Source: Balamuthia mandrillaris (Eukaryota). From it: a stretch of DNA of 64,000 nt. Shown piece after piece: positions 727 to 20,862 of the stretch (the first letter of the stretch is position 1; each line of letters starts with the position of its first letter). The position numbers and the translations under genes were made by a program. The notes below the pieces were generated by a model. It did not search any database. It saw only the letters and a program-made list of their open reading frames with translations, and was not told where the DNA came from. The stretch lies in contig JAVKOQ020000090.1 in NCBI GenBank assembly GCA_031835245.2, positions 1-64,000 on the forward strand, given 5' to 3'.

Positions 727-1942
727 AACAACATCTGACCCACAGTACTATTGGTGTTTATAGACTTAGTATTGTTTTTAACTCTTTGTTATCCCAAATA
801 AAAATGTCATATACCTTCATTCCTGAGAAAAACGACCAAAGTCAGAATCATCACGAGAAGTAATGGATTTGCTTCGCAGTTATTTTGGTCGTACCGTTAT
901 CACAGCTCGCTCACTTGCTAGTTCACTCGCACTTGATAAAAAAAAAGTCCAACATAGTCTATAATATAAAATAATTGCCATCGCAGGTCTTTTAATTACT
1001 CCATCTATTCCATTTATCCATCCATACATGTATGCGTGTATCAAAAGATGACAAGTGTAAAGTTAGAGGATTCTTTGTTTGCATATCAAGAATGAGAGGG
1101 CCAAAAACAAATACAACCGCTGTTATTCATGTTGCTCTTGCTTCAAAGAAGTATTACTTTCCATCTATTCAATCTTCTTGGTCCGTTGACACTTTAAAAG
1201 CTCTTCCCGAAGAGTCCTTGGCCTTTGATAGTCCAAGTTTTATCTATTTTGCTTTGTTAACAAAGCCATTATTTAGAAGTGAGCAAAAATACAAGCAAGT
1301 AAGCAAGCAAGCAAGTCCTTATGAAACAAAACAATAACAACAACAACAACAACAACAACAACAAGTCAATGTAGAATAAGCATGTCAGTCAATAGCTGAC
1401 AGAGCCAACCAACGAGTGAGTGAGTGAGTGAATGAGCAAGTGGATGAATGATCAAGTAATTGCCTGTTCCCTGAAGATAAACAAACAAAGCAAAGAGTAT
1501 GTTAGTTAGTTAGTAAGATAACCAGTCAATTTGTCCGTCTATCCATCCATCCATCCGTCCGTCCGTCCGTCCGTCCGTCCGTCCATCCGTCCATCAATCC
1601 ATCTGCCTGCCCACCATCTAGCCCACTATCCATCTGCTCCATTTTTATCTCATGCAGAGGCTGTCAGTTAGTTAAGTAAATAGAACAGCTATATAATTCA
1701 AATAAATAAATAATAATAATAATAAATAAATAATAATAAATAATAATAAATAAATAAATAAATAAATAATAAATAATAAATAACAATAATAATAACAATT
1801 AATGTCAATAATAACAATAAATTTGTTATAAATAAATAATAAGAATAACAATAACAATAATATTAATAACAATAACAAATAAATAACAACAACAACAATA
1901 ACAATAACAAATAAATAACAACAACAAATAACAACAACAAAT

Positions 1943-2025
<83 letters not shown>

Positions 2026-2299
2026 ATAAAAGAGGTGATTCCTTTGAAAATACAGTGCTGAGCAAGCCAATGCTTCTACTCGGGTTTAGTAGGTCAAAAA
2101 AGAGCTCAGCCATAACGAAAAAGGCAAGTAAATGAATGAGTGAGTAAGTGCATGCAATGAGTGAATAGAACGACAATAACAAAGAGAGTTTAAAAGAAAA
2201 GAAAAGAAAAGAAAAGAAAAGAAAAGAAAAGAAAAGAAAAGAAAAGAAAAGAAAAGAAGTATACCAAAAAAACAAGCAAAGCAAAAAAGAAAGATGAAC

Positions 2300-3965
2300 A
2301 GGCTAACAAGGCCGTGAAGAGCAGTGAGTACAGTCACAAAGGAAAACAAAGATCATGGAGAGCAGTGCGGCCAGTCACAAAGGAGAAGAAAGAAAGGTCG
2401 TGAAGAGCAGCACGGCCTCTAAGAAGAAAGGTCATGAAGGAAAAACCAAGGCCGTGAAGAGCAGTGAGTGCAGTCACAAAGGAAAACAAAGATCATGGAG
2501 AGCAGTGCGGCCAGTCACAAAGAAGAAGAAAGGTTGTGAAAAGCAGCATGGCCTCAAAGAAGAAAGGTCCTGAAGGAAAAACCAAGGCCGTGGAGAGCAG
2601 TAAGTGCAGTCACAAAGGAAAACAAAGGTCATGGAGAGCAGTACAGTCAGTCACAAAGGAGAAGAAAGGTCGTGAAGAGCAGCACGGCCTCAAAGAAGAA
2701 GAAAGGCCATCTATGAAAGAGAAGAAAAGCACAAAGGAGAAGAAAGGCTGTGAAGAGCAGTACAGCCACGAAGGAAAAGAAAGGCCGTGAAGAGCAGTGA
2801 GTGCAGCAGCCAGCCAGCCGCAAAGGAGAAGAAAGACAGCAAAGAGCAGCCAGTGTGGCCTCAAAGAAGGAGAAAAGCCAGCCAGCAAAGAGGGAAAACG
2901 GCTGTAACGAGCAGTGAGTGCAGTCATAAAGGAGAAGAAAGGCCATGAAAAGCAGCGTGACCTCAAAGAAGAAGAAAGGCCGTGAAGGGCCGTGCGGGCA
3001 CAACGGAGAAGGCCATGAAGAAAAAGAACAGCCAGCGCAACCAAAGAAGAAGAACGGCCATGAAGAGCAAAGCGGTCAGTCGGTCGGTCAGTCAGTCGGT
3101 CGGTCGGTCAGTCAGTCGGTCGGTCGGTCGGTCGGTCGTTCGGTCGGCCAGTCGGTCGGTCGGTCGGTCGGTCGGTCGGTCGGTCGGTCGGTCGGTCGGT
3201 CGGTCGGTCGGTCGCAAAGAAGAAGAAAGGCCGTGAAGGGCAGAGCAATTGCATGCAAAGAAGAAGAAAGGCCGTGATGGAGAAGAAAAGCCACGGAGAG
3301 CAGTGCAATTGCATGCAAAGGAGAAGAAAGGCTGTGAAAAAGAAGAAAGGCCATGGCCATGAAGAACAGTGTCATTACAAAGGGGAAGAAAGGTTGTGAA
3401 GAGCAGCAGTGCAGCCTCCGAGGAGAAGAAAGGCTGTGACGAGCAGTACAGCCACAAAGGGAGAAAAAGGCCGCGAAGAGCAGTGTGGCTGGCTGCGAAG
3501 AAGAAGAGAAGAGCAGTGCGGGGGCCTCAAAGGAGGGGAAAAGTCATGAAGGGAAAGAAAGGCTGTGAAGAACAGTGCAGTCCTAAAGGAGAAGAAAGGT
3601 GATGAAGAGGAAAAAGGCCGTGAAGAGCAGCGCAGCTTCCAAAAAGATGAAGAAAGGCTGTGAAGGGCTGTGCGGGATGGAGAAGGTCATGAAGAAAAAG
3701 AAAAGCCATTAAGAACAGTGCAACCACAAAGAAGAAGAAAGGCCATGAAGGGCAGAGTGGTTGGTCGGTTAGTCGGTCGGTTGGTCGGTCGGTCGGTCGG
3801 TTGGTCGGTCGCCAAGAAAAAGAAAGGCCGTGACGGCGGGGCCGAAAAGCCACAGAGAGCAGTTTGACCACAACAGAGAAGAAAGGCCATGAAGAACAGT
3901 GTGGCTACAAAGAGGAAGAAAGGTGTGACGTGTGGGTCATGAAGAGGGAGGAAGGCCGTGAAGGG
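2300..3965 (+). repeat. Degenerate purine-rich minisatellite (~40-45-bp unit, ~140-bp higher-order repeat) with (CGGT)n inserts
   Basis: Recurrent AAGGCCGTGAAGAGCAGTG...CACAAAGGAGAAGAA. Near-identical ~140-bp blocks start at ~2307, ~2447 and ~2583. (CGGT)n runs at ~3072-3213 and ~3760-3810. Confidence 0.85.
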
Positions 3966-4071
3966 TGAGTCCTCGTGCGATCCGTGCCACTTTTATCTTT
4001 CTTTTTTTTTTTTCGGCCTGCTGATTAATTTGTTTTCCCTTCCCTGTTACCCCCCTTCCCCCTTCCCCCTT

Positions 4072-4114
<43 letters not shown>

Positions 4115-4148
4115 GCCCGGTCGAAAACGGACCCGGAGAAAAAAGAAA

Positions 4149-4464
4149 ATGAAACGTAACAGAGGGGAACTGAAGGAACACTACCAAACGCTAGAGCGAC
4201 AGCTACGATGCCAGCAACAGCAGCAGCAGCAACAGCAGCAACAAGAGAAGGCAGAAAACAAGCGACTGAAGCGCGTACGGCTTCGACAAGCGAAAATGAA
4301 ACGCAGGCACGTCTTTTTAACAGTATTATTGTTGTTATGTTGTTGTTGTTGTTGTTGTTCTTCTTCTTCTTGTTCTTCTTGTTCTTGTTCTTGTTCTTGT
4401 TCTTGTTCTTCTTCTTCTTCTTCTTCTTCTTCTTCTTCTTCTTCTTCTTCTTCTTCTTCTTCTT

Positions 4465-4495
<31 letters not shown>

Positions 4496-5911
4496 TTGGT
4501 TACCATAGGTTGTTTGGTTAACTTTAGGTTTGCTTTCCGCTTTTTGCTCCTCCTTTGTTCATATTGGTGGCATTGTTCTATGCAACTTGACCGACTGTTG
4601 AATTGCAAACGTAGACGAGCAGGGATTCACCTCTCACCTCCATTACCAAAGATAAAGCTACCATTACTTAGTAGCGAGGAAAAGTTACAAGTCCTGTGGT
4701 CAGCACCTCTGACTTTGGAAGAAAGCCAACAATCTGGCCCCTTTTCTTCTTATCGCTTGCTGTCCGCAAAAGACCTGCTGGACTCTTTCCAGTTTGAGGC
4801 CGAAGCTAGTACCCACAGCTTAAAACGACTTTTTCCCTGCAGCAGCAGCGGTGGCAGCAGCGGCGGCGACAAAAACAAGATGAACTCAAAGGCAGCTTAC
4901 AAGTAATTTCTCTTTCTTCTTCTTTATGTTTGTTCTACTCAATGTGTTTTCTTTTTTTCCGTTCTCCTGGTTTGTTCATTGTTTTTTTTCTTTCTTTCTA
5001 TCTCTTCTTTTTCTTTTTCTTTTTCTTTTTCTTTTTTTTTTTTTTACTTTGCTTGCTCTCTTGCTCGCTCGCTCACTCGCTCGCTCACGTTTTTGATAAA
5101 CAGGTTAGCTTATATTTATGTTCCAGTGGATAAGCAACTTAAAGAATGGAAAGAAAGGCATTGTCTCTCCAACCAAGACCTTCACTTGATTATGACCTCT
5201 AGCGGTGGGAACTTGGGCAAAAGAAACAACATTGCCAGTGCAGGGAAGGCAGCTGGCGTGGGAAAGCGACCAGGCACGGACAAAGGATACTTTGGGCTGT
5301 CATATACCCTTGCTCCACGTGGTCCAATTTTTCAGGAATGGCTTTCAAAATGGTGGACGCAGCAACCCTTGCAGTTGAGAACTAGAAGAGAGGAACAAGA
5401 AGAAATGGAGAAAAAGGAAAAGGAAAGTGCAACCACAAAAATGATAACAACAAAGAAGACCATGGAAGAGAAAGAGGAGGAGGAAGAGGAAGCGGACGAG
5501 GACGAGGACGAGGACGAGGAAGAGGAAAAGGAAGAGAACAAGGAAGAAGAAGAGGAAGAGGAAGAGGATAAGGAAGAGGAAAAGGAAAAGGAAGAGGAAG
5601 AGTCAGAAGAAAAACAAAAAGAAAAGAAAAGAAGCACTAGACCTCACTATCACCACAAGGATTTTCCCTACAAGGAACTAAGGAACTTGGAAACTCTCCG
5701 CCCAGATCTCTACGCTTCTTTCGAGTCGTTGGCTTGCATTTTGGCCGCAATAATGCAACAGCACTGCCAAAGGGCTTCAAAGTATCGAAAGAAAACCCTG
5801 AAGAGGCTTTTTTCAACAACTGTAGGAGCATCAATGTCATCTTCATCTCCATTATCATTCTCTTCCTTTTCCTTCTTCCCCTCCTCTTCCTCTTCGTTGT
5901 CATCATCCTCG

Positions 5912-5965
<54 letters not shown>

Positions 5966-6631
5966 GCAGCACTGAAGGAAGGGATAAAGACATCAATAAA
6001 GTGGAAACGCTACCTAGAGGCCGTGGCCATCAGGATGGCCCACAGAGGTACTCTTCTAGGCCAAGGCTTTGCCACAAACCTTATTTTTAGTTGGAATTTT
6101 AGTTCAGCGCCACATGTGGATCCGCAAGATGATGCTAAGGGATTGGCCATTGTGGTTTGGTGGCGCGGTTGGGACCAAAGCAACCGCTGCCCCTACGGCA
6201 GTGATGATGGAAAGCATCGTGCAGCAGGAGAGGTATGGGCCTTTTTTTTCCCTCAATTCTATCGTGCAGTGCGCCTGCATGACCTGGCAACTATTATCTT
6301 CAATTCGGCTGAAGTGTGGCATGGTTCGATCTTTCAAAGAGCTCCGCATTGCACATGTTCAGTTTATGGCTCAATCTCCGCCTTGAACAAACGATTTTTG
6401 AGTGCAATGCACAAGAAAAAGAGCAATGATGACAGCCAGCAACAACAACAACTACCTCCATCACAACTACAACCACAACCACAACCACAACAGCAACAAC
6501 AAAAACAACCCCAACAACAACAACTCTCATCACCACTACTGCCACCACCACTATTGCAAGACTTAACACGATCCTTGTTTGAAATGGCCTCGTACTTTAG
6601 TGCCCCACGAACGACTACAACGACAAAATAA
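4149..6631 (+). CDS. TET/JBP-like 2-oxoglutarate/Fe(II) dioxygenase (3 exons: 4149-4306, 4528-4902, 5104-6631)
   Basis: The C-terminal region NFSSAPHVDPQDD...WAFFFPQFYRAVRLHDLATIIFNSAEVWHGS supplies the HxD (His 6113-6115) and distal His (6320-6322) iron triad in a context like fungal/protist TET/JBP enzymes. Both introns are phase-compatible: a GC-AG intron at 4307-4527 and a GT-AG intron at 4903-5103. Confidence 0.72.
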
Positions 6632-6662
6632 CAGTCAGCAGCAAGCAGATTAGAACAATTGT

Positions 6663-6984
<322 letters not shown>

Positions 6985-6989
6985 GATAT

Positions 6990-9900
6990 TTACAACACTA
7001 ATAAAGGATCCACAAAGTCATCTTCAGCTGTCCTTGAAATAATAACAACATCATCATTAGAATCTTCATCTTCATCTTCCTCTTCAACAACAGCACACTC
7101 CTTCTGTGTGGTCTTTCTTTGAACAGCTGCTCTTTTGCTCTGTTGTCCTTGTCGAAGTCGTCGTCGTCGTTGTTGTGATGATGAGTGTTTATTCCTCCTT
7201 CTTCTCGATTTTAGGGTTGTGGTCCTGCTTTGGTCGTTAGTTTGTCTGGTGGTGGTGGTTGATTGTTGTAGGCCATCCTTTTCCTCGTTTCCCACCCTCG
7301 TGACAGCAACCACAGCACTTCCTCCGCCACCATCCTCACCACAGGTTGAAGAAGTAACAGCCGCAGCCCCAGTCTTTCTTCGTTTTGCTTTGCGAAAACC
7401 AGTGTCGATCTGGTCGTTACCCTCTTGGCTGAAATCTAGAATGCCGATGCAAGGACCGCGAAGACGTTGTTTCGGTTCCATCATCAGCAGATTGTGTAGG
7501 TCCTGGCAATTGTTGCAGTTGTTGTTGTTGTTGTTGTTGTTGTTGTCATTGTTGTAGTGGTGATGATGATAAGGATCCTCCTCTTGTGCCTCTTCGTTGT
7601 TGCTCTCATGGTCGTTGGTGTCGTGGGTAAGAAGGTGACGATGATGGCGAGTAGCACGCCGCTTGTTGTGGGAGTTGGGCATCGAGTGTTGGCCGAGGCG
7701 AGCGAGCTCCTTTGGTAACTGCACCTGCTCCCATTCCACATCATCAACAGTGGTCCTGAGAGGGCGAGCATAGCCCGAAATCTCGAGGTCCCTTTGAAGT
7801 CCTGGGTAATCCCCTTTTGTCATCCCCATGGAGGCCTTCGTGGAACGAGACACTTCTTCATCGTCGTCATCGCCTTCGTTGCTGTCGCTGCTGCTGCTGT
7901 CCTCCTCAGGACTGCTGAAGGCTGCTGAGGAACCGCCACCGCCACTCCCACCGCCACCACCACCGTCGCCACCACCACCACTACCACAACAACGGATAAA
8001 CCAAGCATTTGTTTGGTCTAAAACGGACCTCACTCCTTGTTGCAAAAGCTCATCCACCAGCTGCTGTTGGGTTCTCCATGTTTCCTCAAACGTACTGTAG
8101 CGATTGTAGTTTTCGCGCATAACCATCTCTTGCACGTTCAACAAATCGGCCAGGGCACTCAACCATTTGGAGAATTCCTCGGTGTCCAGGCTACCTTTCT
8201 TGCGGAAAACATCGGTCAAGGTCATCCTTCGGTATTGAATTGGCGTGAGTCCAGCCACATAAGGATTGAAGTCTTGGCCCATCTGACGAACCTCTTGGCT
8301 GAACTGCTTGTACTCCATCGCTTGGCCCTTCCTGTTGATCCACAAAGCCCAAGGATTGAATGGATGTTCCTTGCGACTTTGTTGTCCGGAGGTGGCGCAG
8401 CAATGGTTGTTGCTGTTGTTGTGGTTGTTGCGGCGGTTGCCATGGGTCAGGTTGCGTAGCATCGTCGTGTCACCCTCAGCATGGTTGCTGTCCTCCTCCT
8501 CCTCCTCCTCCTCCTCCTCCTCCTCTTTCACAATCTTCTAGGCAGTGGTCCTCATCCGACATGGTATTCTCTTTATCTTCATCATCATCATCATTGTTGT
8601 CATGAGTGTCGTCGTTGTGTTTGTTGTAGTTATTGCCGTTATCTTCGACATCAGTATTGCCGTTGACAGTTGTTGTTAAGGGACGGTGATGATGAGGAGA
8701 ATGCAAGTGGCTGCTATCGAGTAACGAAGGACGAACCGTACTCAAAAAGTAATCCAACAAAGGTATAAAGCAGGATGGCAAAGGAATCTTATTTGTTTTG
8801 GTTCGAGTTTTTTTCTCTCGAGTGGAGATGATGTAAAGTATCACCTCTTCGTGGCGCTTGTGTGATGAAGCAGCACTAGCCTCAGCTTCAGTAGATAGGG
8901 AAGAGGATGCAGAAGAAGAAGAAGAAGAAGAAGAAGAAGAAGAAGAAGAAGAAGAAGAACAAGAAGAAGAAGCCGAAGATGATGATGATGATGATGACGA
9001 TGTTGAAGGCGAACCCACTTTTAAACGATCGAGTCGTAAACCAGCCACTACTTGTCGTCTCAAACCACCGCAAAAATTCATAAGCAATGTCATCAAACAA
9101 CGTTGAAAAAGCCTTGCTTCCTGTCGTTGAAACAGTAGTTTTTTGGTTTGTAGCCGTTGTCGTTTCTTTCGACGACGTTGCTGTCGCTGTTATAATTAAC
9201 AGAGCCACCATGAAGAAAAAGCAAAGTAAGAAAAGTAAGAAAAGTAGGACTCACTCACCACAAAAACAAACAAACGAAACAAACAAACAAATTATTGCCC
9301 TCCCTAAGCAATGTTTCCTCACCCTAATAAGACGGACAAACAGATAAAACAATAAAAATGGAATCTATCCATCTGTTCATTCTAACCAGCCAGCCAGCCA
9401 GCCAGCCAGATTACCAACCTTTCTTTTAATAGCCTTGCAGGTTAGAGCATGCATCTTGTTCAACATCCAGATGGCAAACACAGCCCTTTCTTCCGCAGTG
9501 ATAAACTTGCCGTTGTTGATCATATCCTTTTCATGGAAAATTTCACTTTGATAGCTGTGGTTTTCGTGCATAGCTTGATTTGCTACTTCTCGAATTAACT
9601 AACCACCAACCTTACATCAGTTATAGAAAGAAACGACAAGAAAGAAAGAAAGAAAGAAAGAAGAAAGAAACAACAACAAGAAATGACAAGAAAGAAACAA
9701 CTACAAAGAAAGAAAGAAAGAAACGACTAGAAAGAAATGACAAGAGAGAAAGAAAGAGACCAAAAGGAAATAGCTACATACGAGACGACAAAATACGATT
9801 TGCCGAACATAACCACGAAATTCAGGTTGGAATGACATCCACCACAGCACTCGTGCCAATATAGCCGCTTTGTTTCGTCGCGTCTTTGCCTGTCCCCAAC

Positions 9901-11869
9901 AGCAGTTTGCAAACTTAACCCAGATACGAACTCGCACACAATCATACAACATGCTAATATGTGGTTTCCATTCGCCACCGCTGCTGCCACCACCGTTGTT
10001 CCATTTTTGGTTGGTTGGTTGGTTGGTTGGTTGGTTGGTTGGTTGGTTGGTTGGTTGGTTGGTTGGTTGGTTGGTTGGTTGGTTGGTTGGTTGGTTGTAT
10101 TGAGATGTAGAGTTGATTGGTTAGTTCATTGGTGAGGTAACGAACAAATGAATAACGCTAATGATGCAAGAGTTGGTTGGTCCTCCAAGGCACTTACCTT
10201 TGTTTGCCACTGCAGCCATAAGTTACTTCGCATTCATAAATCAAACGATAAAACTGGGCCAATACGCTTTTGATATCGCTAGCTGTTTGGTCGCAACTGC
10301 CAAAAGTAACACTTTTTCTTTTTTCTTGGCTTTGTGTTTGAAGGATCCTTCGGGTTTCTGTATCCACACGGTTCTTTTTCAGAGCCGCTTCTTGCTTCAC
10401 GTAGCATGCTAGATATGGAACAAATGGAGCCACTTCCTTATTGAAATTCAGTCCCTTTGTGAGAAGAACAACAACAATAACAACAATCAATCACAGTTAG
10501 CTGAGAGTAACCAACCAACCAACCAACCAACCAACCAACCAACCAACCAACCAACCAACCAAGAAATGGTGAACAAAGAGGCGATGGAAAACAAAATAGG
10601 CCTTACCAAGAAACGGTTGTTGCGGTCTGTTCCTTTTTCTATCAAAGCCATAAGTAGCTGTTCCTTCTTTTTACTAGTGTAGATGGTAGAGAGTTTTGTA
10701 CTATCATCATCTTGAATTTCTTGTTGTTGTTGTTGTTGTTCTGCTTCTTCTGCTTCTTCTTCTTCTTCTTCTTCTTCTTCTTCTTCTTCTTCTTCTTCTT
10801 CTTCTTCTTCTTCTTCTTCTGTTTCTTCTTCTTCTTCTGTTGCTTCTTTATGTACGTCTTCTTTGTTTTGTGCTTTTTCATCTACTTCTTCTGCTTCTGT
10901 TGTTGCTTCATCGTTTTCTTCATCTTTCCGTTTTCTTACTTCCAATTCCTTGCTGCTGCTGCTGCTGCTGCACTTCCACATGTTGTTCTCAGCAGCGCGA
11001 GCATTCTTTCTGGCATCATCCTCAATTTCTGAAGAAGCATTCGAAGACTTCAACAAGAATAGATCATCCTCCTCTTCTTCAAGAATGTCCGTCACCTCAT
11101 CATGGTTTACTGCTGCTGTTGCTTGTTCTGCTGCTGTTGCTGAGAGAAAAGAAGAGGAGGGAAAAGAAGAAAAGAGGAAGGATGATAATGGTGATGCAGT
11201 GAATGTTTCCATGGTCTCCATCGACATTATCGATGGATCAACCGCACCACTTGAGGCCACAGTCAAGGGAGTTACTGTTTGTGTTGTTGTTGTTGTTGAA
11301 GAGAAAGAAGGTTCCAAGTAGTCGCCAAGGAACTGGTGCATTGAAGATGATGCGTATGAGGAAAAGGGATGTTGTTGTTGTTGTCGTTGGAGCTGCACCT
11401 GTTGTAGTTGTTTGGGTTATTGTATGTTAGTATGAACAATAAAAGCAGCACTTATACAGAGTGTTTTGATGGATGGATGGATGGATGGATATGGATGGAT
11501 GGATGGATGGATATGGATGAATGGATGGATGGAGGGAGTGAGTGAGTGAGTAAGGGAAGAGAAAGAAAGGCAAGGTAGGCTACTCGCAATCAAAGTTCTT
11601 GTGCTTACCTGTGAGTTGTCCTCAAAGGCCATTTTCACCTCATTTTCACCAACTGCAGGGCTTGTAGTTGTCGTTGTTTGAGTTCGTTGTTGTTTTCGTT
11701 GCTTACGACGTAGTCTTCTTGCCTTTCTTCTCTGAAGTCGGTTGTGATAACGACAACAACGAACAACTGTTTGCTCTTTGTCCATCACACAGCAACACTT
11801 TCCATTGTTGTTGTTGTTGTTGTTGTTGCTGTTATGATCCCTGTAGAACTGTTCTTCTTCTTTTTCCAT
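6990..11869 (-). CDS. Tyrosine recombinase / integrase-like protein, multi-exon, with a frame change near 8530-8560 (start uncertain)
   Basis: Box [23 protein letters not shown] (~9040-9096); catalytic Lys region [24 protein letters not shown]; HxxR-equivalent [12 protein letters not shown] (~8226-8243); LADLLNV...RENYNRY with the candidate nucleophile Tyr at 8106-8108. Upstream exons are joined by phase-compatible GT-AG introns (11608-11399, 10606-10455) and include [17 protein letters not shown], which resembles a core-binding domain. Confidence 0.78.
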
Positions 11870-12254
11870 TTCTGCTCGCTTCTTTACTTGCCCTTGCACT
11901 TACTCACTTGCAGGCTTGCTTTCTTTTCTTTCTTTTCTTTCTTTTTTGTGTCTTCCATCCCATCTTCGTCACCTGTTCGCTCTTCTCTTCACCCATCAAT
12001 TTTCTTCTATTTTCACCAATGTTTTTTTTTTCATTAATTATTTCTATTAAATCTATCTTCTCATTGGATGGCTTTTGGTGATGGTTGTTTTTTGGTCTTT
12101 GTTTCCGTTTTGTTGTAGTTTTTTTTGAGCTACGTACGTACGACAAAAAAAAACAGTTTTGCTGTTCGCTGCAATAGTAAGAACAACACAGCACAGCAAA
12201 GGCAAACAAAAGTAGTGAGAACGAACTTGTTTGCTTGCTTCTTGGCTTGCAACA

Positions 12255-14100
12255 GCTATGTGGACTTGCTTCCTTGGATGGAAAAGCTCGCTGCTGATAC
12301 TTCTTCAGCAAAGAGATGAAACCAAGGGAGTAGGTCTGCGTGCATGACACAACAGCTGTGCGGACTTGCTTCCTTGGGCTGAAAAGCTCGCTGCTGCTGA
12401 TGCTTCATTCAGCAAAGAGATGAAACCAAGGGAGTAGGCCTGCATGCACTATGCAACAGCTGTGTGGACTTGCTTCCTTGGATGGAAAAGCTCGCTGCTG
12501 ATACTTCTTCAGCAAAGAGATGAAACCAAGGGAGTAGGTCTGCGTGCATGACACAACAGCTGTGCGGACTTGCTTCCTTGGGCTGAAAAGCTCGCTGCTG
12601 CTGATGCTTCATTCAGCAAAGAGATGAAACCAAAGGAGTAGGTCTGCGTGCGCTACGCAACAACTGTGCGGACTTGCTTCCTTGGGCAGAAAAGCTTGCT
12701 GCTGATGCTTCATTCAGCAAAGAGATGAAACCAAGGGAGTAGGCCTGCATGCACTATGCAACAGCTGTGTGGACTTGCTTCCTTGGATGGAAAAGCTCAC
12801 TGCTGATGCTTCATTCAGCAAAGAGATGAAACCAAGGGAGTAGGTCTCGCTGCTGCTGATGCTTCATTCAGCAAAGAGATGAAACCAAGGGAGTAGGTCT
12901 GCGTACGCTACACAACAGCTGTGCGGACTTGCTTCCTTGGATGGAAAGCTCGCTGCTGATACTTCTTCAGCAAAGAGATGAAACCAAGGGAGTAGGTCTG
13001 CGTGCATGACACAACAGCTGTGCGGACTTGCTTCCTTGGGCAGAAAGCCTGCTGCTGCTGATACTTCTTCAGCAAAGAGATGAAACCAAGGGAGTAGGTC
13101 TGCGTGCATGACACAACAGCTGTGCGGACTTGCTTCCTTGGGCAGAAAAGCTCGCTGCTGATGATGCTTCATTCAGCAAAGAGATGAAACCAAGGGAGTA
13201 GGCCTGTGTGCGCTATGCAACAGCTGTGCAGACTTGCTTCCTTGGATGGAAAAGCTCGCTGCTGCTGATGCTTCATTCAGCAAAGAGATGAAACCAAGGG
13301 AGTAGGCCTGTGTACACTACACAACAGCTGTGCGGACTTGCTTCCTTGGGCAGAAAAGCTCGCTGCTGCTGACACTTCATTCAGCAAAGAGATGAAACCA
13401 AGGGAGTAGGTCTGCGTGTGCTACGCAACAACTGTGTGGACTTGCTTCCTTGGGCAGAAAAGCTCGCTGCTGATGCTTCATTCAGCAAAGAGATGAAACC
13501 AAGGGAGTAGGTCTGCGTACGCTACACAACAGCTGTGCGGACTTGCTTCCTTGGACAGAAAAGCTTGCTGCTGATGCTTCATTCAGCAAAGAGATGAAAC
13601 CAAGGGAGTAGGCCTGCATGCACTATGCAACAGCTGTGAGGACTTGCTTCCTTGGACAGAAAAGCTAGCTGCTGATGATGCTTCATTCAGCAAAGAGATG
13701 AAACCAAGGGAGTAGGCCTGCATGCAATATGCAACAGCTGTGAGGACTTGCTTCCTTGATGGAAAAGCTCGCTGATACTTCTTCAGCAAAGAGATGAAAC
13801 CAAGGGAGTAGGGTCTGCGCAGATGACACAACAGCTGTGCGGACTTGCTTCCTTGGGCAGAAAAGCTTGCTGCTGATGCTTCATTCAGCAAAGAGATGAA
13901 ACCAAGGGAGTAGGCCTGCATGTGCTACACAACAGCTGTGCGGACTTGCTTCCTTGGATGGAAAAGCTTGCTGCTGCTGATGCTTCTTCAGCAAAGAGAT
14001 GAAACCAAGGGAGTAGGCTGTGCAGACTTGCTTTCTTGGGCAGAAAAGCTTGCTGCTGACGCTTCAGCAAAGAGATGAAACCAAGGGAGTAGGTCTGGCT
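12255..14100 (+). repeat. Tandem array of ~100-bp hairpin-forming units (19 copies of the CAGCAAAGAGATGAAACCAA anchor)
   Basis: Anchors at about 12306, 12410, 12510, 12614, 12715, 12816, 12869 (preceding unit truncated), 12968, 13070, 13174 ... 13989 and 14065. Units are mostly 96-104 bp. Confidence 0.95.
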
Positions 14101-14401
14101 GGGATGAAGGACAACATTCCTTTGAACCTGCTTACGCCCAGGCTTGATGCTGTTGCACCACCTGTGGTACGCGATGATCGGCAAACAAAAGAGCTGAAGC
14201 AAGAGTGGTAGTTCTGAGAGTGCATAAGATGTTCGGTTGGTTGGTTAGTTAGTTGGTGGTTCAAAAAAAAGAAACAAGAGAATGAGTTGAGAAGTAAGCA
14301 GGTTCCGAGCCAGCTTGTGTGTCGGTCCCCGAGGTCTTTATGGCTCTCATGTCGTCATGAAAGTCTCAAACATTTCGTCTCTTCCTTTTTCTCTTCTCAG
14401 C

Positions 14402-14655
14402 CTTCTGCTGCTTCCTCGCGTTCTCTGCCTCAGGCGGCTTCGCCGCCTTCGGCAGGTGGCCTTCAGCCACCCTCTAGAAGCCTGGTAGACCCACATTTTC
14501 AACAGAAAAAGTGGGAAAGCGACATTTGTCTCGCGATTCCACCGGAAATTGCACTTTTGCGGCCTTGGGCCGCTTCCTCGCGTTCTCCGCCTCAGGCGGC
14601 TTCGCCGCCTTCGGCAGGTGGCCTTCGGCCACCCTCTAGAAGGCCGGTAGACCCC
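14402..14655. repeat. Two ~90-bp direct repeats made of GC-rich TTC/GAA-loop hairpins
   Basis: CCTCAGGCGGC-TTC-GCCGCCTTCGGCAGGTGGCC-TTC-(A/G)GCCACCCTCTAGAAG...GGTAGACCC at ~14402-14492 and ~14570-14655. Two more degenerate copies lie at ~15660-15750 and ~15828-15912. Confidence 0.9.
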
Positions 14656-14818
14656 TAACCCTAACCTAAAAACTGACTCACATACATAAACTCACTCACT
14701 CATAGTAACTCTCCTCCTTTTTGACATCATTTTTGTTTTACTTTGTTTTCAACTGCTACCTTTGTGTTTATAGTTAATATTGCTTCCTTCTTTAAAACTT
14801 GTGCTGTTAGTCCTAACC

Positions 14819-15917
14819 CTGTTTGCTGCAGTAGTGAGAACAACACAGCACAGCAAAGGCAAATAAAAGTAATGAGAATGAACTTGTTTGCTTTCTTCTT
14901 TTCTTAGCATAACAGCTGTGCGGACTTGCTTCTTTGGGCAGAAAAGCTCGCTGCTGATGCCTCTTCAGCAAAGAGATGAAAACCAAGGGAGTAGGCCTGC
15001 GTACACTACACAACAGCTGTGCGGACTTGCTTCCTTGGGTAGAAAAGCTCACTGCTGATGCTTCTTCAGCAAAGAGATGAAAACCAAGGGAATAGGTCTG
15101 CGTGCATGACGCAACAGCTGTGCAGACTTGCTTCCTTGGGCAGAAAAGCTCGCTGCTGATGCTTTATTCAGCAAAGAGATGAAACCAAGGGAGTAGGTCT
15201 AGCTGGGATGAAGGACAACATTCCTGCAGGCTTGATGCTGTTGCACCACTTGTGATGCACGATGATCAGCAAACAAAAGAGCTGAAGCAAGAGTGGTAGT
15301 TCTGAGAGTGCATAAGATGGTCGGTTGGTTGGTTGGTTAGTTAGTTGGTGGTTCAAAAAAAAGAAACAAGAGAATGAGTTGAGAAGTAAGCAGGTTCTGA
15401 GCCAGTCAGCTTGTGGGTTGGTCCTGAGGTAGTTATGGCTCTCATGTCATCCTGAAAGTCAAACATTTCATCTTGTCCTTTTTCTCTCTTTTCCCTAGGA
15501 GTTGAGCTCTCACCGATGATTCCCTTCTTTTAGATCCGTTGGTTGGTTAGTTAAGAACCAAACCAACTGTTGTGAGGTACATAAAGGTATACTTGGAGCT
15601 CTATTGCAACGCTAAAACAGCAAATAAATCAATTCCACCGTAAATCACACTTTCTCAGCCTTCTGCTGCTTCCTCGTGTTCTCTGCCTCAGGCGGCTTTG
15701 CCACCTTCGGCAGGTGGCCTTCGACCACCCTCTAGAAGCCTGGTAGACCCACATTTTCAACAGAAAAAGTGGGAAGGCACCATTTGTCTCGTGATTCCAC
15801 CGTAAATTGCACTTTTGTGGCCTTTGGCCGCTTCCTCATGTTCTCTGCCTCAGGCGGCTTCGTCACCTTCAGCAGGTGGCCTTCAGCCACCCTCTAGAAG
15901 GCCGGTAGACCCCTAAC
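14819..15917 (+). repeat. Second, shorter copy of the subtelomeric module at 12162-14659 (3 array anchors plus downstream flank)
   Basis: Shares the left flank (CTGTT(C/T)GCTGCA(A/G)TAGT(A/G)AGAACAACACAGCACAGCAAAGG), array units, right flank and end GGCCGGTAGACCCCTAAC. Has an extra ~170-bp segment at ~15490-15650. Confidence 0.9.
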
Positions 15918-16201
15918 ATGATTCCTCCTTAGAGGCCAATACCTATTAGTATTTCCCCATTGCACACACTGTTAAAGGTCAACCTCAATGGTTGTATCTA
16001 AATTTGCTGACCACTTTTGGAAAAACTTGAAAGTGCTGGGTAATATTTCTCCTTTCTCCTGCTCTTATATTTAAAGAGCTTCTTTATCATTTGTATTCTA
16101 ATAGATAGACAGACAATACACATCTTTTCTTCCACACATTGTTTCCCTTCCACTGTACACCTCTACTCTTCTAACACCTAGACCTTGAGAACAAGGACAT
16201 C

Positions 16202-17650
16202 ATGGAGCACCTCACCACCCATGGACTCAACCAGGAGGAGGTCAGAAAGGTGATTGACAAGATCAGCAGGAAGGCTGCTGATATTAGGAAGTTCTGCAAG
16301 GACTATAGCATCACCAAAAACCTGGATGAGAGCCTTGACAAAACCGTGAAGAGCCTATCAGAAAGCGCCCAGCTTGAATACAAAAAAGTGCATGCAATTT
16401 TTTGTATTCTAGTTGGGCACTTTCTGATAGGCTCTTCATGGTTTTGTCAAGGATTGACACATTGCTGACCTTTCCTGAAATGTCTTCTTGGAGGCCTTCG
16501 CTGATTTGCCTAACGTCTTTCTGCACTTTGTCGTTGAGCTCTTCCCATTCCTCTTGAAGCCATCTCTTGCCGTCTATCACCCTCTTTTCAAGGTCTCCTA
16601 TCTTGGCATCTTTTTCCGTGAGGGATTGCTTCAGCATGTCTGTAATCTCGCTCTTCAGGACATTGTCCCCGTGCTATCCAAGATCACACATTATGCCGGA
16701 CAAGAGGAGAAGAATGGAACCAGTCCCCTGGTCCTAAAGTTTCTTCCTGAAGAGGAGAAAGAAGCAGGAAACGAACCCTGGTAGCCTTTGGTAACAATGT
16801 CTACAGTACTTGCAGGAACGTTGTAGGTGCTATAGAACAACTTCATGTCACTTGGAGATATCCGTAGGTGCATGGGCCTGGAGAGAGAGAGAGAGGATAT
16901 CAGATTCATGGATGTTCTGACCGTGAGCACAAAGAAGCAACTATGTACCCCAAACCATCTGAGATTTCGTCTGCATAATGAACTTACAGTCAGCTTACAA
17001 GACAAGGAGGAAAATAAAAAGGAGAAGGGAATACCTTGTTGGTGCCTCGCACATTGGCTGGCATGCCATAAGCCAGCTTCTGAGTGTTCGGGTCAGCCAA
17101 TTGGACGGTCGGTTTGGAGCGGAAATGGGTCTGTCGGGTCAATTGGGATTCAGAGCATTGGACTTGCCTCTTGAACGAAGTCTCTGGAGAACGGATGACC
17201 ACTACGTCGTCTATCAGGTCTGTAATTCTCTTTGGCGCACTGAAGAGAAGCGAAGGAGAAACAGGAAGAGAGAATGTGAGAGTGAGAGTGAGAGTGACAT
17301 TGTACAGATCAAGGGGATTTTTTTTTTTTTGTCGGGCAGGAAGGGGAGGTGTAGACGGCGACATCCTCTACTTCGCCCTCGCCTTCGCCCTCACCCTCAT
17401 CCTCACCATCACTTACCTGGACAAGTATCAAAAGAGCAAGGCTCCAGTCTTTGAAGAGGACACAAAGCATAAGAAGCAGAAAACTGCGCCTGATCTTTCC
17501 ATTGCTAAAGTGTCCACAGTTGAAGAGGTGAACAAGCTCAAAGGGAAAGCGCTTGAGGCACAACTCTCTTCGGTCTCTCCAAGACCTCTAAGGGCGATAC
17601 CACCGTGGTGGGCAAGAAGAAGCGTTTGGCCGAGTTCCTCTCCGATCCAA
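16202..17650. pseudogene. Mosaic of fragmented coding remnants (coiled-coil fragments; possible SAP-like motif at ~17520-17640)
   Basis: Short, broken protein-like ORFs on both strands. EEVNKLKGKALEAQL followed across a frameshift by GLSKTSKG...GKKKRLAEFL resembles a SAP motif. Confidence 0.35.
16333..16452. repeat. 120-bp imperfect palindrome without spacer
   Basis: CCTTGACAAAACCGTGAAGAGCCTATCAGAAAG...TGCA|TGCA...CTTTCTGATAGGCTCTTCATGGTTTTGTCAAGG, centre 16392/16393. Both strands encode LDKTxKSLSESAQLEYKK. Confidence 0.93.
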
Positions 17651-17828
17651 GCGCCTTTCAACACTGCTTGCGGCCTCACAAGCTCCGCGGCCTCACTGCT
17701 CTTCCTTTGCCCTTCTTTTTTGTCGACAAGACGGAAAAAGACGGTTTGCATTTTTGGACTTGCTTTCGCGGGTTTTCGCTTGTGCGAATGTCGACAAAAA
17801 ATCAGAGGAAAGTCGCTCACAGAATCGC

Positions 17829-18345: not shown

Positions 18346-20862
18346 ATGGTGCTGCGGAGAGCAGGTTGGTGGTTGGCGGTGGCTGCGGTAGGTACCTGTT
18401 TGGCAGTCGGAGCTTCGGTGGGACTGGGTGTCTGGTCTAAGGCCGATTGGTTCACCGATCCTGGCCCCTACAGCCACACCTGGACAGGCTACAACAAGCA
18501 ACAGTTTGTGGGGCTCGTCTTCTTCACGTTTCTTTCTCCCGTGGCTTTCACTCTGTTGTTCACGGCATCGCAGCAAGCACTGTGCTTCCTCACGCCAGCC
18601 AACAAGTACATCCGATTGATCGCTACAGCGCTGGCGGTGAGCTTGTTGGTTGTTGGAGCTACGTTTGGAGGCTTGTGGGCAGCTCCTTTCCTGGATTGCT
18701 TCGGTGTAGGGTGCCTGAATCCGGAGGTTTACAAGAAGCTCACTCCTCGACAGCCAGAGGCCGGCATGGGGTGGCAGGCCATCGTTGGCATGTCCGCCCT
18801 TTTGGCCTTTGTCTCTCTAGCGGTTGCACAGTTGGCAAGCTTCGTTCTGGGCATCGTGGCAGAGCGGAGACAAGCCAGCAACAAAGAGAGGGAGGACCTC
18901 CCGCTTCTTCGCAAAGGAACGTCAACAAGCTTGTTGGTGGTCTCGCCCCCCACTCCTGGAGCTACTCTACGACAAGGCTGGCTTCTTTACTTTCTTCTCT
19001 TCCTGCCGTTGCTGGTCTTTGGCTTCACGACCACCTACATTCCCAACTCTTGGGAGTACTTCATGCCAGATCGCATTGCCTCCTATGCCGCTCAGAAGGT
19101 CACTCATGACCCTAAGGTCTATAAATACCCCGAGTACGTCGCCATTCCGGAGTACCCTTGGGCCACTTTCAAGACCAAGGAGCTGGAGCTGCGTGACGAC
19201 TGGCGCCTTAAGATCTTTCCTGACAACCTCTTCCTCTATGTGTTCCTTCTGGTGGTTCCTCTGGCCACATTGTTTCTGCGTTCATTTGGGCCGACAAGGC
19301 TGCTTCTTGGTGCGGGAGTGTGGCTCCCTCAGCTCGAGTTCTTCTACTGGCACTTCCCACGATACATCCTTCAGCTTAGCGTCCGTTTACTCCCAGCGGG
19401 CGAAAGCAGCTCAAAACTGGAAGCCTCTCGCCCTTCGTTACGGCTGCGCCAACACCTCGTCTTTGTATCGCTTGGTCGGCTGCTGCTGGCCGCTGCAACG
19501 GTGACTCTGATCACTTTGTGGTTCTGGTATTGGGTCCACGACCACAACTTCAACGGCTACTGGCCATCTGCAGCGCATGTCTACGATGCGGAGAAGATAG
19601 GTCGTGCTTTTGGCCAGTTGGCTGTCCTCCTGTTTGGATTGCTGATGTTCCCTGCTGCTCGCAACTCTGTTCTGCCTTTCATCTTTGGGCTTTCTTGGGA
19701 GGCTGCCATCTTCGCTCATGTCATCCTCGGCCGTCTCTTCCTGTTGGCAGCCTTCGCTCACATGGTGGCTAACTACGTCTGGTACTCCAAGACACACAAC
19801 TTTCCGGGAGATGTGCTGGCTGTGCCGATGCACCTCAGCAACGGCATTGACAACTTCACGGTGCCTCTCATCACGTTGGTCACATGGCTTACCTTCATCA
19901 CAATGGGCGTTTTGACTCTCTGGCAGATAAGGCGGAGGTTCTTTGAGCTCTTTTACTACTCCCATCATATCACCTACTGCTTGCTCATCCCTGCCGTTCT
20001 GTGGCACGCCGCTGCCGGTTGGGAGTTCCTTCTTCCCGGCGTTGCCTTTTGGTTCGTGGATCGCTGCATTCGGGCCTACCGCAGCGCTACAGCCGCTGAA
20101 ATTATCTCTGCCATCCACCACGACCTCGGTGGTGTTGGGCGTGTGGTGTCGCTGCGCCTCCGTGCTCCTTTTGCTTACCGACCGGGCCACTACTGCTTCA
20201 TCAACGTCTCTCAACTGTCCCTCTTCCAATGGCATCCCTTCACCATCGCTGGAGCCGACAAGAACGAGGTGGAGCTTCACATCAAGGTCATGGGAGAAGC
20301 CACCTTTACCTCTCGCCTGGCAGACGCTGTGCGAGACGGCCTTACTCTTACTGTCAACGTGGACGGACCCTACGGCCTCCCTATCGAGTTTGGGCGTTAC
20401 CAACAGATCTGCCTGGTGGCCGGTGGCATTGGCATCACTCCTTGCAAGGCCATCATCGAAGCACTGGCCGCCCTGCCACAGGCTCATCTTCCTCACCTTG
20501 AAAGAGTGGTGCTTGTTTGGAGTGCCCGCGATAGGAAGCTGCTGGACTTGCTGTACCCCGCCATGGCCAAGGCTGCTGCTAACGACAAACGCTTCGCCCT
20601 CTACTGCCACTTTACCGGACATGATAACGTCTCCATGAACTCGAGCGTAACGTCTGTCTCCTTCGCAGAAGAGGACGTTGGTGGGTGTCCTGTCTTTGTT
20701 GGGCGGCCTAATCTGTCTGACATCGATGAGCTGCACGAGGGTGACGATCTTGGATTGTCCACCCTGATGTTTGCTTGTGGTCCGGAGAACCTCGTTGCAG
20801 ATGCTGAACGACACGCACGCCAGCGACGATGGGACTTTCATAACGAAACCTTTTTGCTGTAG
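18346..20862 (+). CDS. Ferric reductase / NADPH oxidase-family transmembrane flavocytochrome (intronless, 838 aa)
   Basis: Heme-ligand His pairs (FAHVILGR...FAHM; FYYSHH...LWH), FAD motif QWHPFTI, DGPYG, NADPH motif LVAGGIGITP, FACGP and terminal FHNETF. Confidence 0.93.
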   Translation: MVLRRAGWWLAVAAVGTCLAVGASVGLGVWSKADWFTDPGPYSHTWTGYNKQQFVGLVFFTFLSPVAFTLLFTASQQALCFLTPANKYIRLIATALAVSLLVVGATFGGLWAAPFLDCFGVGCLNPEVYKKLTPRQPEAGMGWQAIVGMSALLAFVSLAVAQLASFVLGIVAERRQASNKEREDLPLLRKGTSTSLLVVSPPTPGATLRQGWLLYFLLFLPLLVFGFTTTYIPNSWEYFMPDRIASYAAQKVTHDPKVYKYPEYVAIPEYPWATFKTKELELRDDWRLKIFPDNLFLYVFLLVVPLATLFLRSFGPTRLLLGAGVWLPQLEFFYWHFPRYILQLSVRLLPAGESSSKLEASRPSLRLRQHLVFVSLGRLLLAAATVTLITLWFWYWVHDHNFNGYWPSAAHVYDAEKIGRAFGQLAVLLFGLLMFPAARNSVLPFIFGLSWEAAIFAHVILGRLFLLAAFAHMVANYVWYSKTHNFPGDVLAVPMHLSNGIDNFTVPLITLVTWLTFITMGVLTLWQIRRRFFELFYYSHHITYCLLIPAVLWHAAAGWEFLLPGVAFWFVDRCIRAYRSATAAEIISAIHHDLGGVGRVVSLRLRAPFAYRPGHYCFINVSQLSLFQWHPFTIAGADKNEVELHIKVMGEATFTSRLADAVRDGLTLTVNVDGPYGLPIEFGRYQQICLVAGGIGITPCKAIIEALAALPQAHLPHLERVVLVWSARDRKLLDLLYPAMAKAAANDKRFALYCHFTGHDNVSMNSSVTSVSFAEEDVGGCPVFVGRPNLSDIDELHEGDDLGLSTLMFACGPENLVADAERHARQRRWDFHNETFLL

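Follow-up and report, generated by a model that had tools for sequence, protein, structure and literature searches.

The 64,000-nucleotide stretch of DNA analysed here (the window; positions 1 to 64,000 of contig JAVKOQ020000090.1, Balamuthia mandrillaris, assembly GCA_031835245.2) is eukaryotic in character, being rich in microsatellites and carrying GT-AG introns. It contains a tandem array of short monomers, located within a composite element that is present twice in the window. The array has a high copy number, a strand-specific hairpin fold and heavy CpG decay. A preliminary description made from the letters of the DNA had taken the locus for a polycistronic array of small or structured RNAs, transcribed divergently from a recombinase gene, rather than for a plain satellite.

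Tandem Repeats Finder (TRF) placed the long array (array 1) at 12249-14093, with a period of 104 and 87-92% matches, and a short array of the same monomer family (array 2) at 14911-15200. Its copy figures for the period-104 repeat were 11.5 and 5.9, so that many similar monomers follow each other head to tail, as in a satellite. Unit boundaries were set by anchoring on an invariant 16-mer (Table 1). When the arms of the hairpin described below were searched for across the whole window, all 20 matches to the 5'-arm and all 21 to the 3'-arm fell on the plus strand, and none lay outside the arrays. When run over the 64-kb window with filters off, a covariance model built from the monomer returned the two arrays, their minus-strand echo and two noise matches (E 0.6-0.8) only. 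Both arrays open in the loop/3'-arm of the hairpin and close in its 5'-arm, and this common phase indicates that the array is an old, integral and expandable part of the element. The invariant 20-mer had no match in public metagenome contigs or public viral contigs, and the 3'-arm pattern had none in the metagenome contigs. A coding role for the array was rejected, because its period cannot be divided by three and the open reading frames (ORFs) are short and shifting.

The two copies of the composite element extend over 12162-14659 and 14819-15917 and have in common a right part some 565 bp long. They hold 18 and 3 monomer positions, respectively; an array with recurring conserved flanks and a varying number of monomers is what defines a central tandem repeat, here in two copies. 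In copy 1 the right part holds a TTGG-like microsatellite, two direct repeats and, at its end, CCCTAA-like repeats. The direct repeats (14400-14492 and 14562-14654, 92% alike, in copy 1; 15632-15750 and 15794-15912 in copy 2) are about 93-119 bp long and about 162 bp apart. Each contains perfect hairpins rich in G and C (GGCGGC-TTC-GCCGCC; GGTGGCC-TTC-GGCCACC), with CTCTAG after them. The similarity between the repeats runs about 17 nt past the CTAG near the right end, as judged from two copies only, and a search for terminal inverted repeats of the element gave none that was convincing. Telomere-like CCCTAA repeats (about 2.5 units, 14652-14669) lie exactly at the right end of copy 1, and a single CCCTAAC (approximately 15911-15917) lies at that of copy 2.

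The abundance of the element was estimated from a DNA sequencing run (X1), in which 2428 contigs were placed on a 6-kb stretch, 1207 of them fitting two places. The array bins summed to 1000-7000, compared with 6-19 for single-copy contigs, and the loose ends of the contigs showed other genomic contexts. Thus, the monomers form a dispersed family with many copies, and not a private locus. A relative represented in runs X9 and X10 gave contigs 90-99% alike. The earlier proposal that the array is something other than a plain satellite fails, as the family is multi-copy and sits inside a composite repeat of which the window holds two copies.

Hairpin fold and strand specificity

In the first unit, the arms CCAAGGGAGTAGGTCTGCGT (12322-12341) and GTGCGGACTTGCTTCCTTGG (12358-12377) are separated by a loop of 16 nt and form a hairpin, designated H1. 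Pairing by hand and RNAfold confirmed the 20-bp stem that had been noted before, made up of 14 Watson-Crick and 6 G-U pairs and free of other mismatches. In the RNAfold structure of the unit, this contiguous stem is followed by a 6x9 internal loop and then by 3 bp and 6 bp. The latter correspond to the GAG/CTC and TCAGCA/TGCTGA pairings, which the preliminary description had regarded as a basal extension. Although RNAfold recovered these pairings, they can equally form a small hairpin of their own (H2, 3+6 bp) where one unit meets the next. In a transcript of the array, 20-bp and 3+6-bp hairpins would consequently alternate.

Folding of both strands confirmed that the structure is strand-specific: each of the 18 intact units folded with lower energy on the plus strand (RNAfold). 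The mean was -40.6 kcal/mol on the plus strand (z -4.1, relative to dinucleotide shuffles) and -26.8 on the minus strand (z -0.5), and a 431-nt stretch of four units gave z -7.6 and -0.9, respectively. Arm matches and folds together confine the tandem hairpins to one strand, as in clusters of hairpin RNAs (hpRNAs).

Such a stem could be neutral, that is, an old DNA dyad in a transposon-like repeat, whose six G-T mismatches came to lie on the same strand by accident, any RNA being incidental. Several properties of the units speak against this neutral satellite. The asymmetry of the fold recurs in 18 of 18 units, and the 20 pairs hold neither a transversion nor an A-C mismatch, whereas the mismatches in the other imperfect inverted repeats of the window comprise 52 G-T, 37 A-C and 93 of other kinds. 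The paired bases are rich in G and T (G15 T11 C9 A5), the unpaired bases are rich in A (A22 C15 G15 T12), and the excess of TG over CA is limited to the arms (4 vs 1, and 6 vs 8 elsewhere; hand count on units). That all six stem mismatches are G-T is itself unusual, with a probability of approximately 0.016 under symmetric transitions only and a lower one otherwise. On the other side, 1 in 64 is a modest figure, uncorrected for post hoc choice, and the right flank of the element lacks a plus-strand fold bias (z -2.5 on plus, -4.6 on minus). Overall, the G/T-rich pairs and the arm-limited TG excess, together with the contrast between fixed and polymorphic mismatches and the symmetric substitution spectrum described below, favour a real single-strand feature.

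The single strand concerned could also be DNA, if a rolling-circle transposase (Helitron-like, HUH) or some other recombinase read the hairpins on one strand during movement or replication of the host element. With DNA parameters the asymmetry persists, the plus strand being favoured in 18 of 18 units (-16.4 vs -11.6). Helitrons start with 5'-TC, end with a 3' hairpin plus CTRR and insert at A/T or T/T; the perfect hairpins rich in G and C, with CTCTAG behind them, near the right end of the element resemble such a 3' end. The difference in monomer number between the copies is likewise as in the central repeats of Helitrons and Helentrons (PMC8268682). Against a transposase substrate, the window yielded neither a Rep/helicase domain nor that of any other transposase, the similarity continues beyond the CTAG, and terminal inverted repeats were not found. 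Internal arrays are not known to serve as transposase sites. We therefore consider hairpins of single-stranded DNA a quite improbable explanation.

Table 1. Positions of the array, the hairpins, the composite element and neighbouring genes in the window
Feature	Position	Strand	Description	Basis
Array 1	12249-14093	+	16 full monomers (96-104 bp), partial first and last units, single orientation	TRF, anchors, arm matches, covariance-model matches
Internally deleted units of array 1	12813-12865; 13986-14061	+	53 bp; 76 bp	unit list
Hairpin H1, example	12322-12377	+	20-bp stem (14 Watson-Crick, 6 G-U), 16-nt loop	sequence, fold, pair counts
Hairpin H2, example	12387-12419	+	CTC..TGCTGA / TCAGCA..GAG, 3+6 bp, 8-nt loop, between units	sequence, pairing by hand, multi-unit fold
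Array 2	14911-15200	+	2 full monomers, partial first and last units; start/end phase as array 1	TRF, units, sequence
Left flank, element copy 1	12162-12243	+	82 bp, 91% identity with 14819-14900	
Right part, element copy 1	14094-14659	+	85-93% identical to 15198-15917	
Left flank, element copy 2	14819-14900	+	91% identical to left flank of copy 1	
Right part, element copy 2	15198-15917	+	about 164 bp extra at 15488-15651	
Spliced neighbour gene	11000-11795	-	intron 11397-11606; transcript extends past 11795 towards the array	RNA contigs X14, X3
Candidate 'recombinase' ORF	6990-8537	-	515 amino acids; probably the ORF meant in the preliminary description	

Unit variation, RNA data and family matches

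The reading that we prefer, as possible rather than probable, is that the array is a repeat-borne 104-bp satellite whose plus-strand transcript would form a string of hairpins, likely to be cut into small RNAs in the manner of tandem hpRNA clusters. The plus strand would then be the transcribed strand of the array, and the restriction of the mismatches to G-U may reflect past selection on, or an origin in, an RNA hairpin. H1 (20 bp), H2 (3+6 bp) and longer pairings between units could act as Dicer-type substrates. The small-RNA products might in turn act back on the repeat family, which would be in line with its methylation-like CpG loss. The earlier view of a polycistronic array of small or structured RNAs is thus supported in part: the hairpin restricted to the plus strand holds, whereas covariation and an Rfam match are absent.

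A number of observations weigh against this reading. Since all units share an ancestor, the G-U pattern is effectively one observation, and one selected post hoc. Compensatory base changes were looked for in the array units, and none was found: 0 of 23 pairs were altered on both sides, and 500 of 500 shuffles equalled the observed score, so that the covariation expected of a conserved RNA structure did not appear. Among the polymorphisms within the array, three create G-U and four create A-C, making pair-breaking changes as frequent as pair-keeping ones. The variant with a single C-A mismatch in the stem, noted before as common, was indeed present in 8 of 17 distinct rows (columns 35-64) and has thus spread to nearly half of the distinct units. 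Balanced stem changes and a widespread C-A variant give no sign of current constraint. Furthermore, the most conserved block takes in an unpaired spacer (columns 2-34), and in nearly every variable column the change is from CpG to TpG or CpA, the variation tracking CpG sites and not structure. A further set of difficulties, concerning DNA copy number, targets and RNA families, is considered with the respective data below.

The preliminary description had placed the differences between units in the loop and upper stem; they do occur there but are not confined to these parts, as the spacers vary too (columns 78-80, 89-90 and 97-103). Conversions of G-U to A-U, also noted before, affected 5 of the 17 distinct rows (columns 40-59), and those of U-G to U-A affected 2 (columns 37-62). 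A change of CpG to TpG in one arm leaves the plus strand paired whatever the partner CpG becomes, and the conversions of G-U to A-U are therefore uninformative on selection. The observed/expected ratio of CpG was 0.33 in array 1, compared with 0.74 in the window, and TpG was enriched to 1.77. Such CpG loss is the pattern expected of a decaying repeat that is, or formerly was, cytosine-methylated.

For the neutral satellite introduced above, the absence of covariation, the balance of breaking and preserving polymorphisms (4 to 3) and the dependence of the variation on CpG decay are all favourable. The same holds for the multi-copy, dispersed nature of the family, which resembles that of the central repeats of oyster Helitrons and Helentrons (PMC8268682). 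The fixed mismatches, with six G-U and no A-C, differ from the polymorphic ones (3 to 4; one-sided Fisher test by hand, 0.049), which counts towards a real single-strand feature. We regard a purely neutral dyad, the main rival reading, as somewhat unlikely.

A further alternative is strand-biased deamination, in which C to T changes on the plus strand only would have turned an old perfect palindrome into a stem with G-T mismatches. Three of the six G-U pairs, in the upper stem, do lie where a plus-strand change of CpG to TpG would create them (hand analysis), and the array is strongly depleted of CpG and enriched in TpG. The other three G-U pairs, by contrast, lie outside a CpG context. Within the array, C to T was found at 8 columns and G to A at 10; in the contigs of DNA run X1, the corresponding changes were found at 10 and 14 places, with A to G at 12 and T to C at 13. 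A spectrum so symmetric between the strands makes a general strand-biased mutation unlikely. Nor are the unpaired parts poor in C or rich in T, as loops and spacers, which are A-rich, keep C at 15 of 64 unpaired bases. Deamination had been named in the preliminary description as what could explain away the G-T bias, and on these data we consider it highly improbable.

Transcription was assessed in several sequencing runs. The spliced joint 11396>11607 of the neighbouring gene (CT..AC ends) was present in contigs of X14 and X3 and absent from the DNA run X1, identifying X14 and X3 as RNA-derived. Both the array and its right flank received reads or contigs from RNA-derived runs of two studies. 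In run X3, the array bins ranged from 3 to 27, and contigs near-exact to the locus covered 14062-14456 (one other letter) and 14427-14618 (none) in the right flank at depths of 8.7-15.8, with 12.7-16.6 for the neighbouring exons and 0.72 for the intron bin. The RNA contigs of X14 left 12002-15007 without cover, which is evidence neither way. Raw RNA reads of runs X15, X16 and X17 (79, 94 and 17 reads placed, from 12.9 million records read per run) fell in 8 of 18 run-by-bin cells of the array, all with the first mate on the minus strand. The orientation of these reads supports no strand, as the strand control gave 8.07 vs 4.35 for a plus-strand control gene in X16 and roughly even values at 17346-17679. 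Transcription of the array is therefore possible. Set against it is the depth of an exact right-flank contig in DNA run X1, 164.7, or about 10-20 times that of single-copy contigs (6-19). At this copy number, carry-over of DNA amounting to a few per cent would give the same cover in an RNA run. The search for targets was equally unfavourable: neither arm had an antisense match outside the arrays at up to 3 mismatches, and so no complementary site, in the 64-kb window to which the search was limited.

Matches to RNA families were sought with Rfam. At gathering score, no family was found in the whole window, and at E up to 1 over 11000-17000 none, miRNA (microRNA) families included, was found in the array region. 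As candidate miRNA precursors, the units offer a predicted hairpin on the plus strand, whose 20-bp stem is short for a pre-miRNA and has no Rfam family. The usual miRNA duplex (about 21-22 bp) plus lower stem is longer than the 20 contiguous base pairs seen here. No self-cleaving ribozyme family was matched in the array, and a tRNA scan returned 0 genes. A hammerhead or small nucleolar RNA reading of the CUGAUG/GAUGAAA motifs was rejected, because Rfam is silent and the motifs vary between units, the CUGAUG-like motif being CTGATGC or CTGATAC. A scan for promoters and terminators of the bacterial type was uninformative for a eukaryote.

These searches also bear on the possibility that the array is the relic of a retroposed structured RNA, the monomer having descended, G-U pairs included, from a small RNA gene before its amplification as DNA, without a present RNA role. 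A stem rich in G-U and an A-rich loop are typical traits of RNA genes, and CCCTAA-like repeats at an element end (14652-14669) recall telomere-primed retroelements. The array has no Rfam family and no tRNA-like gene, however, and the window yielded no reverse transcriptase; we think such a relic very unlikely.

Neighbouring genes and other repeats

The spliced minus-strand gene is expressed; it encodes a low-complexity product without a Pfam family, and its 5' end abuts the array-bearing element. Divergence of the array from a recombinase, as first described, stands as far as the geometry is concerned, for this gene begins within about 300 bp of the array, but the 'recombinase' itself has no Pfam match. 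No recombinase domain was found by Pfam in any ORF of the window. The candidate ORF (6990-8537) has no Pfam family, and a search for its relatives returned only itself. Its Atlas leads were sub-threshold (0.86-0.89, threshold 0.9) and pointed to clusters of NDC10_II, DUF3435 and Phage_integrase, in which 25%, 93% and 10% of the members, respectively, carry the domain in question. The best structural row reached a template-modelling (TM) score of 0.47 over 88 residues. These families are related to Crypton or tyrosine recombinases, and we treat the ORF as a weak Crypton-like lead and no more.

Elsewhere in the window, an intact gene of the ferric-reductase/NOX type lies at 18346-20862 on the plus strand (Ferric_reduct, FAD_binding_8 and NAD_binding_6). 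Its product has a single relative (56% identity) among 5.8 billion proteins, pointing to a poorly sampled organism. A long plus-strand ORF at 4907-6631 encodes huge acidic and serine runs. Its assignment to TET/JBP (2-oxoglutarate dioxygenases), suggested by a motif-like stretch in its C-terminal part, was not supported by Pfam or by a PDB sequence search and was discarded.

Two further repeats were observed. At 16331-16454 there is a near-perfect 120-nt palindrome with arms of 60 positions and 54 Watson-Crick pairs. It accounts for the only Rfam matches at E up to 1 in 11000-17000 (16332-16453); several miRNA covariance models matched it on both strands, far under gathering (best 58 bits vs 200). 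The palindrome has the appearance of a foldback of the miniature inverted-repeat transposable element type, and a diverged paralogue has RNA contigs in which 16391-16642 is skipped. Another tandem-repeat family, with periods of 136, 41, 37 and 55-60 and a GGCCGTGAAGAGCAG-like core, occupies 2307-2800 and 2928-3665.

Relation to known systems

The architecture of the composite element matches a known kind, the central satellite array of a non-autonomous mobile element. Short satellite arrays in this position are best described for Helitrons and Helentrons (PMC8268682; see also PMC12628747). The central arrays of oyster Helitrons and Helentrons (satellite DNAs of the Cg170 type) have about six monomers on average (PMC8268682). 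With these and with Drosophila DINE-1 the present element shares a short array in mid-element, a microsatellite beside it, conserved flanks and a varying number of monomers. The monomers are of 104 bp here and of 160-180 bp in oyster (PMC8268682), and a strand-specific G-U hairpin, as found here, is not among the features that the consulted parts of those accounts give for Helitron and Helentron repeats. The Rep/Hel protein of Helitrons was not found in the window.

Regarding the hairpins, the closest likeness is to hp-CG4068 of Drosophila, a locus of tandem hairpins with 20 copies in Drosophila melanogaster and a rapidly changing copy number of 20, 9, 14 and 10 in four species (PMC10317233). 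A single transcript is believed to give rise to the hp-CG4068 hairpins by cleavage, and small interfering RNAs (siRNAs), dependence on Dicer-2 and a target gene have been shown for them (PMC10317233). Both loci consist of many hairpin units arranged head to tail in one orientation. In contrast to hp-CG4068, a single locus with demonstrated siRNAs, the array described here belongs to a dispersed multi-copy family with shorter stems and is known from its sequence.

Two further kinds of tandem RNA unit invite comparison. Polycistronic miRNA clusters, e.g. miR-430 and C19MC, arose by tandem duplication and, as here, repeat hairpins of about 100 nt in one orientation. The present units differ from them in the 20-bp contiguous stem, in the lack of an Rfam miRNA family and in the CpG-decaying repeat that hosts them. 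Satellites may also carry ribozymes, as do the hammerhead satellites of newts and schistosomes and the retrozymes. Tandem monomers and a conserved fold are common to these and to our array, as would be transcription of one strand; no hammerhead or other ribozyme family was matched here, and the CUGAUG-like motif is variable.

A more far-reaching version of the small-RNA reading may be considered. It would have a dispersed element with expandable, G-U-rich hairpins transcribed on the plus strand beside the promoter of the Crypton-like gene, its transcripts being diced and the products directing methylation and silencing of the repeat family as a whole. We regard this combination as unlikely; if true, it would constitute a transposon-borne, self-targeting counterpart of hpRNA clusters. 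Should the hairpins not be processed, the locus would be another transposon-borne satellite with a dyad, and would warn that a G-U-only stem in a single family is weak evidence for RNA function. If they are processed, the array would represent a compact, expandable source of small RNAs inside a mobile repeat, in a lineage for which hardly any relatives have been sequenced, and the locus would tie satellite DNA, transposons and RNA silencing together beyond the model organisms.

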